Sequence record: ON470589.1
DNA: 45,921 bases
Strand: one strand, 5' to 3'
DNA from: Escherichia phage vB_EcoP-611R6
Shown here: positions 36,353-37,807 of the stretch, in pieces
Numbering within the stretch: the first letter of the stretch is position 1
How the letters are laid out: every line of letters begins with the position of its first letter
Position numbers and translations under genes: made by a program
Notes under the pieces: model-generated
What the model was told of the DNA's origin: nothing
What the model saw: the letters and a program-made list of their open reading frames with translations, nothing else
Database searches by the model: none

Positions 36353-36682
36353 TTAGTCATCCATGGATGGATTGAGCTTATCTCGTGTTGATGTGGCAAT
36401 TTTCCCAACATTTTTCAACCAAGATTTTAAGAAGGATATGTCGTCCTTAATATCATGAATATCCTCATTCTTTATACGATCAACCTTATCCTCTAAGCTC
36501 TCTATAGAACGCTCAATGCTAGACAGAGAGATTTTTAAGTCCCCTTGCTCACGTTCCAGTGAGGATTTGAGAGCACAATATTCGTTTTCTAGAATTCCTA
36601 TTTTTTTTGTTAGAGAGTGCATTCGATACTCATACACCAAACCAGAAACGACTAATGCAGCCAACAGAAACCATTCAAGCAC
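36353..36682 (-). CDS. Single-pass membrane protein with C-terminal coiled-coil (sieA-position accessory gene)
   Basis: Perfect SD AAGGAGG followed 5 nt later by GTG; product about 110 aa with N-terminal TM helix LEWFLLAALVVSGLVYEY and acidic coiled-coil; the track ORF extends to 36757. Confidence 0.5.
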   Translation of the reverse strand: MLEWFLLAALVVSGLVYEYRMHSLTKKIGILENEYCALKSSLEREQGDLKISLSSIERSIESLEDKVDRIKNEDIHDIKDDISFLKSWLKNVGKIATSTRDKLNPSMDD

Positions 36683-36747
36683 ACCAACCTCCTTAGTTTT
36701 GAGCAGGATACCAGATGATAATGTGTAGTTGGAGTAGCGCGGTTGTA

Positions 36748-36838
36748 ATGCAAGCATTTTGTTTTAGTTTTATGCTTGCTTGTATGTGTGTACAGTGTAT
36801 ATAATGCAAGCATACAACACAATAAAGGTGCTTGCATT
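36748..36838. promoter_or_regulatory. Divergent promoter with four palindromic half-sites ATGCAAGCAT / ATGCTTGCAT and a TATAAT -10 at 36799-36804
   Basis: Sites at 36748-36757, 36772-36779, 36804-36813 and 36829-36838, arranged as two inverted pairs; the last overlaps the downstream start. Confidence 0.4.
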
Positions 36839-37807
36839 ATGACTGAAAAGAAAAGTGGCGAAGGGAAAGCTAAGGGCGGGATCGCTCGCGCAAAGTCGCT
36901 GACTAAAGAGCAGCGTTCTGAAATAGCAAAGAAAGCAGCGGCTGCAAGATGGAAAAGTAAGATTCTCAGGGCAACTCATCGTGGTAACTTTTTAGATGAT
37001 TTTGGCATTGATGCTGAATGTTATGTACTGGATGACGAGTCGAAAACTGTTGTTGTTACGAAAACTGGATTATCTCAGTTGTTAGGGATTGGTGAACATG
37101 CCAGGGATTTAGATCAACTGCTTGGCGCTCAGTATATGAGCAAATACCGAGATCTAGAATTGCAGCGAAAAATGGAAAATCCCTATAAATTTCAACTTAC
37201 TTCGAAGTCTAAAACCGTTCATCAAGCGTTAGGTTATGACATTACAGCAATTGTTGATATTGGTAGGGCACTAATAGAAGCAAAAGATAATGACGACCTA
37301 CCACAATCACGGTTAAAGGCCGCGGCTGCAGCGCAGAGACTTATTAATGCCTCCGCTAAGGCGGGAATTAAGGGGGTTGCGTATGCGCTTGCTGGTTATC
37401 GTCCAGAAGTTCAGGCTGTCATTGACGAGTTCAAAGCGTTTGTTCGTGAAGAGGCTCGTCAATATGAAAAGGAATTTCCAGATGAGTTATACGAGGAGTG
37501 GTATCGATTGTACGGCCTGAATAGGCCAGAGAAAGGACGGCCTATTCGTTTTGGGCAGCTAACCAACATGCAGATATACACCCCGCTAGCAAAGAGTAAA
37601 GGTAAAATCCTTGAACAGATTCGAGCCAGCCGAGACGAGAACGGAAAACAATCTGATAAGTTGCATCTGTTCCTTTCTGAAATTGGTGTCAAGGCTTTGC
37701 GTCAGCATATCGGTAAGCTTCTTGGGGTCGCAGCGATGAGTGAGACAAGAGAAGAATACGAAAAAGGAATAGAAAAGGTTTTTGGAAGAATGAAACCAGA
37801 AATCTAA
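36839..37807 (+). CDS. Hypothetical protein with basic N-terminus (P63C-like putative DNA-binding domain), sieA-position accessory gene
   Basis: Start taken at MTEKKSG after the -10 element; 322 aa; KGGIARAKSLTKEQRSEIAKKAAAARW motif; strong terminator downstream. Confidence 0.55.
   Translation: MTEKKSGEGKAKGGIARAKSLTKEQRSEIAKKAAAARWKSKILRATHRGNFLDDFGIDAECYVLDDESKTVVVTKTGLSQLLGIGEHARDLDQLLGAQYMSKYRDLELQRKMENPYKFQLTSKSKTVHQALGYDITAIVDIGRALIEAKDNDDLPQSRLKAAAAAQRLINASAKAGIKGVAYALAGYRPEVQAVIDEFKAFVREEARQYEKEFPDELYEEWYRLYGLNRPEKGRPIRFGQLTNMQIYTPLAKSKGKILEQIRASRDENGKQSDKLHLFLSEIGVKALRQHIGKLLGVAAMSETREEYEKGIEKVFGRMKPEI

Follow-up and report, generated by a model that had tools for sequence, protein, structure and literature searches.

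Results and discussion

The window studied here, that is the whole stretch of 45,921 nucleotides (nt) from Escherichia phage vB_EcoP-611R6 (ON470589.1), is a P22-like (Lederbergvirus-type) prophage of Escherichia coli. Between its ejection genes and mnt, at 36353–37807, it carries two divergently oriented genes, a minus-strand homologue of hkcB and a plus-strand gene for a P63C-domain protein of 322 amino acids (aa). These are two independent morons that merely share a divergent intergenic region. The P63C gene, its control region and its terminator (36683–37837) form a self-contained mobile single-gene cassette, and hkcB encodes a coiled-coil protein, predicted to be anchored in the inner membrane, that travels with ejection gene 16. 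To the explanation as a whole, in which an autorepressed P63C cassette and a gene-16-linked hkcB meet as two morons, we give a probability of about 0.5. The name hkcB and the region as a moron hotspot are already known. What appears to be new, judging from sequence comparison, is a family-wide, apparently autoregulatory cassette in which protein and operator change specificity together and which may be distantly related to the abortive-infection protein BstA. The features referred to below are, in window coordinates:

36353..36682, minus strand: hkcB homologue, 109 aa, N-terminal membrane anchor and coiled coil; PHROG, PGAP and HK620 match
36680..36694, minus strand: shared translation-initiation junction (AAGGAGG, 5 nt, GTG) at which unrelated leftward cargo is swapped, as seen in alignments
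36748..36837: four 10-base-pair (bp) operator-like sites in alternating orientation, start-to-start spacing 24, 32 and 24 bp
36748–57: site 1, ATGCAAGCAT
36772–81: site 2, ATGCTTGCTT
36804–13: site 3, ATGCAAGCAT
36828–37: site 4, GTGCTTGCAT
36776..36805, plus strand: putative sigma-70 promoter of the P63C gene (-35 TTGCTT, 18-nt spacer, -10 TATAAT), read from sequence
36839..37807, plus strand: P63C-domain gene, 322 aa; PF10546, phrog_2384, PGAP WP_000136767.1
37812..37835: intrinsic terminator, 10-bp stem and T-run, confirmed by a terminator scan

Distribution and linkage of the two genes

In every context examined (HK620, CUS-3, Salmonella, Klebsiella and two metagenomic phages) the stop codon of hkcB meets that of gene 16 with a 0-nt gap, and this holds for homologues down to 50% identity. 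Because hkcB always abuts gene 16 while its far-side neighbour varies between hkcC, a 148-aa open reading frame (ORF), a ClpP-like protease and a leftward mnt operon, we assign it to gene 16 and not to the P63C gene. The P63C gene also changes its partner. In further P22-like prophages of E. coli the identical protein, again with a near-identical upstream region, stands opposite one of two different leftward genes: a cytoplasmic ORF of 140 aa or an ORF of 129 aa that encodes a signal peptide. Both are unrelated to hkcB. Whichever of the three a prophage carries, hkcB, the 140-aa ORF or the 129-aa ORF, the homology starts precisely at the ribosome-binding site and GTG that they share. In a set of 5426 complete E. 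coli genomes, 46 have the cassette and 82 have hkcB, and the two lie contiguously in 14.

The first-pass annotation had treated the pair as one module. In its explicit form, hkcB and the P63C gene would be one co-functional and co-inherited exclusion cassette with a shared divergent promoter, a reading that we consider highly improbable. The two genes are indeed adjacent and divergent, and their common intergenic region of 156 bp holds the operator array. Moreover, in P22-like prophages the ribosome-binding site and start codon of the leftward gene are fused to the P63C control region, and therefore the P63C protein could co-regulate any gene placed there. However, the distribution largely refutes a two-gene unit: only 14 genomes have both genes, against 46 and 82 with the single ones, hkcB is found with the varying neighbours named above in place of P63C, and the P63C gene is found with the two other leftward genes or without any divergent gene, a terminator standing there instead.

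The fixed junction of ribosome-binding site and GTG reads AAACTAAGGAGGTTGGTGTG on the minus strand and is also present in loci L016 (around 4007), L018 (around 4003), L044, L063 and L043. The 129-aa leftward ORF, a member of phrog_2651, has the signal peptide MKQFLTAMFLFISFGATA; PGAP places its start at a downstream ATG, which is probably wrong.

Control region of the P63C gene

With up to one mismatch, the sequence ATGCWWGCAT has 7 matches in the 45.9 kb of the window, four of which are sites 1–4, lying within 90 bp; both exact matches of the window are among these four. Of the exact matches to TGCWWGCA, three out of four fall in the intergenic region. The putative -35 hexamer TTGCTT (36776–81) lies inside site 2, and the last two bases of the -10 hexamer TATAAT (36800–05) begin site 3. 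As an array, the operator-like sites overlap with the -35 and -10/+1 elements and with the start codon of the P63C gene. A consensus scan missed this promoter because its -35 hexamer matches at only 3/6 positions. On the other side, the convergent mnt ends inside the terminator at 37812–37835, and the right-hand mosaic boundary of the cassette is at about 37837. The pair had been credited with its own promoter, operators and terminator and called an autonomous cassette. All of this applies to the 322-aa gene alone and not to the pair; hkcB has no terminator of its own, its stop codon abutting that of gene 16 (36352/36353), and no promoter was found for it.

The four-site layout and the promoter geometry recur in 40 distinct upstream regions of close P63C homologues. 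There, site 1 lies near -88 and site 2 near -65, the latter containing the -35 TTGC(T/A/C)T; after an 18-nt spacer the -10 (TATAAT, TATTAT or TTAAAT) is flush against site 3 (GCAAGCA) near -33, and site 4 abuts the ATG. When the 240 nt upstream of the homologues were compared with sequence elsewhere, the 8-mer TGCAAGCA/TGCTTGCA reached 10.6 versus 0.026 per kb for close homologues (407-fold) and 3.4 versus 0.018 per kb for distant ones of ≤30% identity (184-fold). A de novo search for the longest perfect inverted repeat, made with no prior motif, returned one containing GCAAGC in 74 of 112 distinct loci. ST104 orf23, which is 31% identical to the window protein, has the same terminator, four sites and leader.

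The sites also change together with the protein. P63C clades with another N-terminal basic motif have another palindrome of the same skeleton, in which both arms are changed symmetrically. The motif KGG[IVL]ARA..LT goes with GCAAGC, GGKA[KR]AAKMT (the 933W type) with TTGCACGT-N-ACGTGCAT, GGKALAEKRT with GCGCGT/ACGCGC, GGKARAAKLT with GCACGC/GCGTGC, AGKAR.QK with CGTTAGCA and GGKAAAAKLT with GATAGAT, and homologues without the N-terminal motif are also without the repeats. Conservation of the sites across the family, together with their change along with the basic N-terminal motif, argues for autoregulation by the P63C protein itself. It is thus likely, as far as these comparisons go, that the P63C protein binds DNA at its own operators and represses its own promoter, and the simplest reading is that it would recognise the sites through its N-terminal two-helix motif. 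That the 322-aa protein is nucleic-acid binding, as the first-pass annotation suggested from its lysine/arginine-rich N-terminus, gains support from these conserved, co-varying operators and is very probable.

The inverted repeats could instead act as RNA hairpins that mask the start codon, in translational control or attenuation, and not as protein-binding operators. If transcribed from upstream, 36795–36850 folds into a 14-bp hairpin that buries the AUG (-17.5 kcal/mol, z = -4.0), and late-operon read-through from gene 16 would include this hairpin. The cassette's own transcript, however, is unstructured (-3.3 kcal/mol, z = +1.2) and lacks the stem, as the 5' arm contains the putative -10. 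Among 51 distinct regions, 46 have an exact site 3 and 26 a deviating site 4, and none of the deviations is compensated. The sequence itself and not just the pairing is conserved across protein identities of ≤30%, and a search of Rfam gave no family, only sub-threshold hairpin artefacts. We therefore regard control by RNA structure in place of operators as very unlikely, although for read-through transcripts the two readings are not mutually exclusive.

Other explanations for ATGCAAGCAT were sought among the sigma-54 consensus and several E. coli transcription-factor consensus sequences; none fits. The annotated starts of ST104 orf23 (L180 3417–3456) and 933W L0095 (L179 3417–3461) fall within the operator and promoter sequences; judged by the conserved N-terminus and by site 4, translation would start at ATGs further downstream, at about 3454 in ST104 (MSDKESKEP...) and at 3459 in 933W (MKNDDVSGKAKGG...).

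P63C protein family and mobility of the cassette

The divergent 322-aa protein noted in the first-pass annotation is present at 36839–37807, and its basic N-terminus begins MTEKKSGEGKAKGGIARAKSLTKEQRSEIAKKAAAARW. It matches the P63C domain (PF10546) at aa 199–286 (E 6.8e-14, 52.7 bits versus a cutoff of 26.1) and phrog_2384 end to end (aa 6–321, E 1.7e-104). Three parts can be distinguished, a basic two-helix N-terminal motif (aa 10–39), an alpha/beta middle (about 43–190) and a helical C-terminal region. An AF2 model built on a diverse alignment, with a predicted local distance difference test score (pLDDT) of 90.1 and a predicted template modelling score (pTM) of 0.70, shows the N-terminal helix pair, the alpha/beta middle domain and the helical C-terminal domain. 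Full-length relatives form 1682 clusters at 90% identity and 1363 at 50% identity, reaching down to about 27% identity. Members of P63C/phrog_2384 such as 933W L0095, ST104 orf23 and Mx8 p63 belong to the same family, and the three-part architecture is kept to about 27% identity. The enterobacterial subfamily of the window differs from most P63C members just upstream of the Pfam domain, where the invariant ALVDEATGYQ of the latter is replaced by AYALAGYRPE. In the alignment the VDEATG(Y/F)Q motif, whose D and E are invariant among 39 sequences, is absent from the window protein, which has VAYALAGYRPE there (37370–37400, aa ~178–190). An acidic motif, which might be catalytic or bind metal, may have been lost here.

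Searched as a profile against PDB sequences, the P63C family gave nothing; the best hit was mIHF (6tob) with E 0.34 over profile positions 21–101, which take in the N-terminal motif and the start of the middle domain. The stretch LTxEQRxxIAxKAAxARW (36866–36955, aa 10–39) resembles the N-terminal helix of actinobacterial mIHF, at the same non-significant E value. NCBIfam held no match to the P63C protein, and PHROGs offered only families of unknown function. Two proteins considered along the way were set aside: the Gifsy protein GiPD474 is a ParA-like ATPase and not a relative, and ST104 orf23 is a member of the P63C family and not BstA itself.

The cassette has been found in several different slots. 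Its right-hand homology with EC28-type prophages ends just past the terminator (query position 1638, window 37837). P63C homologues of 58–80% identity lie directly downstream of an S24-type cI gene, on the same strand, in at least 13 of 35 distinct IMG/VR loci and in Klebsiella, and the distant member ST104 orf23 also follows cI directly. Others lie between antiterminator Q and holin, in P22-like ant morons (6 loci) or after DUF6246 or gpV-apex tail genes, and the distant homologue 933W L0095 is in the nin region. Outside the P22-like phages a conserved terminator, GCAGA(A/G)ATGCGGCCTTTTTT, usually precedes the cassette. Since the same terminator is also found before class-2 (GCACGT) cassettes, it travels as part of the mobile unit. 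Near-identical copies, GGTCGCAGA(A/G)ATGCGGCCTTTTTT, are present in L003–L006, L041, L045, L058–L069, L180 (3320–3345) and others and absent from the window. In Klebsiella prophages (L003/L004/L006, 5554–5862) cI and the P63C cassette are separated by an acidic ORF of 102 aa that matches nothing in Pfam or PHROGs; L005 does not have it, so it is no fixed partner.

The gene-16-linked hkcB

The minus-strand gene, proposed in the first pass to share in an uncharacterised exclusion or defence function, is not novel and already has a name. It shares 97.9% nucleotide identity with hkcB of HK620, and the two agree in start, length and placement relative to gene 16; HK620 hkcB, epsilon34 gene 14 and CUS-3 hkcB are all the same gene as that of the window. 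Compared with HK620 only the far-side neighbour differs, being the P63C gene in the window and hkcC in HK620. hkcB is listed as an ant-moron gene of HK620 and epsilon34 (PMC2629481). Its GTG start (36682–36680), correctly read in the first pass as lying 5 nt after AAGGAGG (plus-strand 36688–36694), agrees with the HK620 annotation, the PGAP coordinates and the profile of phrog_5962, an unknown-function family to which the protein is homologous over its full length. The ratio of nonsynonymous to synonymous substitution rates (dN/dS) is 0.16–0.38, with one pair at 0.58, which indicates purifying selection and thus a real protein-coding gene. The family is small, comprising 26 clusters from E. 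coli, Salmonella and Klebsiella.

The N-terminal 17-aa window has a Kyte-Doolittle hydropathy of 1.94 and is followed by R/K residues, and the remaining 90 aa are helical with 18 D+E versus 16 K+R. The predicted single membrane helix and coiled coil thus stand as first described, while the acidity of the coiled coil is only mild. Pfam contains no domain for hkcB, for the alternative leftward ORFs or for hkcC. hkcB gave only a weak coiled-coil-type match in PADLOC-DB 2.0 (DpdH, E 0.0024) and only matches far below cutoff in NCBIfam. The families found for the two proteins are PF10546/phrog_2384 and phrog_5962. The earlier view that neither gene is a virion or immI component is upheld, and the slot is the documented hypervariable ant moron (PMC2629481).

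The C-terminal ~45 aa of hkcB are nearly invariant in the alignment and fall inside a DNA block that is conserved over the convergent 3' ends of gene 16 and hkcB. This block (36212–36474) takes in some 140 nt at the end of gene 16 and some 120 nt at the end of hkcB and keeps 86–89% identity in CUS-3, epsilon34 and SEN22, the remainder of both genes having diverged. It could mark a boundary of recombination, or the two C-termini could be co-evolving. Two chimeric variants, P0142 and P0143, combine an unrelated N-terminus without membrane anchor with the invariant C-terminal ~45 aa (DRIKNEDIHDIKDDISFLKSWLKNVGKIATSTRDKLNPSMDD).

Possible functions

We propose that the P63C protein would bind the four ATGCAAGCAT-type operators over its own -35, -10/+1 and start codon, and that this autorepression would keep the gene at a low, constant level in the lysogen, apart from the phage's own regulatory cascade. 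Judged by slot, architecture and weak homology, its most likely job would be a BstA-like, prophage-encoded defence or exclusion against incoming phage DNA. BstA acts by abortive infection as the product of a single gene, which lies downstream of cI, has its own terminator and is overlapped at its start by a cognate DNA element; the protein contains a KilA-N-like DNA-binding domain (PMC8585504). Both BstA (prophage BTP1; Owen et al. 2021, PMC8585504) and P63C are single-gene prophage morons of about 300 aa, with their own terminator, a domain of DNA-binding type, predicted in the case of P63C, and, at the 5' end of the gene, a cognate DNA element that varies with the protein variant. The slot of BstA, downstream of cI and upstream of N, is also a slot of P63C homologues. 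In a profile comparison, hhalign aligned P63C family aa 43–190 to BstA family aa 7–154 (KilA-N-like) with a probability of 61% and E 7.9e-5 (135 columns); when BstA was represented by one sequence alone, the probability was only 14%. Relatedness of the P63C middle domain to the KilA-N-like domain of BstA is suggestive at this level of profile comparison; Pfam gave no KilA-N match in the P63C protein.

The two systems also differ. Unlike BstA, the P63C protein carries an additional basic two-helix motif at its N-terminus. The DNA element of BstA is the 63-bp aba inside the gene, whereas that of P63C is a four-site array over promoter and start codon. Whereas BstA adjoins cI, the place of the gene in the window is the ant moron, between gene 16 and mnt. 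On balance, a defence or exclusion role for the cassette, argued by analogy, is a tentative proposal to which we give somewhat less than even odds.

In a competing reading the P63C protein would regulate the phage life cycle in the manner of Bro/KilA/Ant/Rha proteins, as an antirepressor-like protein or a transcription factor; it would likewise be autoregulated, and its targets would be the switches of its own or co-resident prophages or host genes. The P63C domain is named after Mx8 p63 and is common to phage regulator families. Structural matches in BFVD are weak and uniform in kind (Mx8 p63, Bro-N, Ant-N, Rha, 'Repressor domain protein', 'Regulatory protein'), all of them of the regulator type. 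The gene adjoins mnt-arc-ant in the window and roi in 933W, and sequence-specific DNA binding, as predicted from the operators, is the best-supported property of the protein. On the other hand, no further operator cluster was seen in the prophage, the other one-mismatch matches being single at 40203, 42532 and 43411, and the terminator-insulated cassette moves among phages with unrelated switches. Its commonest slot, downstream of cI, is the site of rexAB-, sieB- and BstA-type defence genes (PMC8585504; PMC12724215). We regard a regulator of this kind as rather unlikely.

A more far-reaching version of the defence role sees the P63C cassette as a widespread but so far unrecognised BstA-like single-gene immunity, in which the operators would both autoregulate the gene and act as a 'self' element, and sees the sieA position as a socket for exclusion genes. 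The operator array, amplified on induction of the carrier prophage, would titrate the P63C protein, as aba does for BstA, and the co-evolution of protein and operator into at least five specificity classes would keep related phages from exploiting the system. The socket, with its fixed ribosome-binding site and GTG, would take interchangeable exclusion genes matched to the gp16 type, including hkcB. In this full form we find the proposal unlikely.

For hkcB itself the comparison is with P22 sieA, which occupies the same position and orientation, convergent to gene 16. Both gp16 and gp20 are targeted by SieA in their C-terminal parts, and ejection proteins of the HK620 type partly evade it (Leavitt et al. 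2024, PMC10883804). Both SieA and hkcB are predicted inner-membrane proteins whose genes converge on gene 16, and as the target of SieA is the gp16/gp20 conduit, so hkcB is strictly linked to gene 16. They differ in build: SieA of P22 has 164 aa and several hydrophobic segments, hkcB 109 aa with a single anchor and a coiled coil. As a non-homologous analogue of SieA, hkcB might interfere with the gp16/gp20 DNA-delivery conduit. Position and linkage are the basis of this SieA-like role, which is possible but doubtful.

Several points weigh against the account preferred here, of an autorepressed P63C cassette with a tentative defence role beside an independent, gene-16-linked hkcB. P63C domains reportedly occur in Bro/KilA/Ant-type regulators (Iyer et al. 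2002), and therefore a purely regulatory role fits equally well. A host factor might bind the four sites instead of the P63C protein. The similarity to the BstA N-domain is below a convincing probability, and the C-terminal domain PF26567, present in all BstA homologues, is replaced in the window protein by the P63C helical domain, with no PF26567 match at E ≤ 1 in Pfam. Since the VDEATGYQ motif is lost in the subfamily of the window, any activity depending on it would be absent. The slot of the 933W homologue is nin, a delayed-early and not a lysogen-expressed region. PADLOC-DB 2.0 has no match to the P63C protein, and the searched literature contained no functional study of any P63C/PF10546 member and nothing functional on hkcB. 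The linkage of hkcB to gene 16 could be a mere conserved recombination block over both 3' ends (36212–36474). For hkcB, no convincing sigma-70 promoter emerged from a scan or from comparing five divergent P22-like contexts, and BLASTP against P22 SieA gave no alignment at E ≤ 100.

The P63C family is large, with members in Stx phage 933W and in Salmonella ST104/ST64T-type phages, and its genes form insulated cassettes that seem to regulate themselves and that move from one classic moron slot to another among temperate phages. As the DNA motif tracks a 30-aa N-terminal motif, a protein and a 10-bp site provide a biochemical handle, and the cassette is a defined, clonable unit of 1.15 kb. If the defence role is true, this would be a BstA-like family with built-in specificity classes; if regulation is true, it would be a new autoregulatory DNA-binding module. 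As hkcB is strictly linked to gene 16 and stands at the sieA position, it may represent another type of injection-blocking protein, one for phages of the HK620/CUS-3 type, which partly escape SieA.

The ant moron and neighbouring genes

In the window the ejection genes 7/20/16 are followed by the hkcB homologue and the P63C gene, then by mnt, arc, a 73-aa ORF, ant and the tailspike gene. The stretch from gene 16 to the tailspike was named the 'ant moron' by Villafane, Casjens and colleagues and is in rapid flux, with ten types across sixteen genomes (PMC2629481). That of P22 consists of sieA, hkcC and orf59a, the latter two listed as of unknown function (PMC2629481). The earlier statement that the P22 slot holds the exclusion genes sieA and hkcC is thus correct for sieA and not for hkcC.

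The 73-aa ORF (38336–38557) between arc and ant overlaps the arc stop; PGAP lists it as a hypothetical protein in E. coli VR50, and it has no Pfam match. VR50 is 100% identical to the window over the 1.9 kb surrounding both genes. The tailspike of the window (within 39623–42666) has 639 aa, whereas its counterpart in VR50 is a different protein of 981 aa. Beyond the tailspike, an Acyl_transf_3 ORF of 375 aa, which overlaps the tailspike ORF, is followed by the integrase (39623–42666 and 43520–44713). This ORF probably encodes an O-antigen acetylase for lysogenic conversion.

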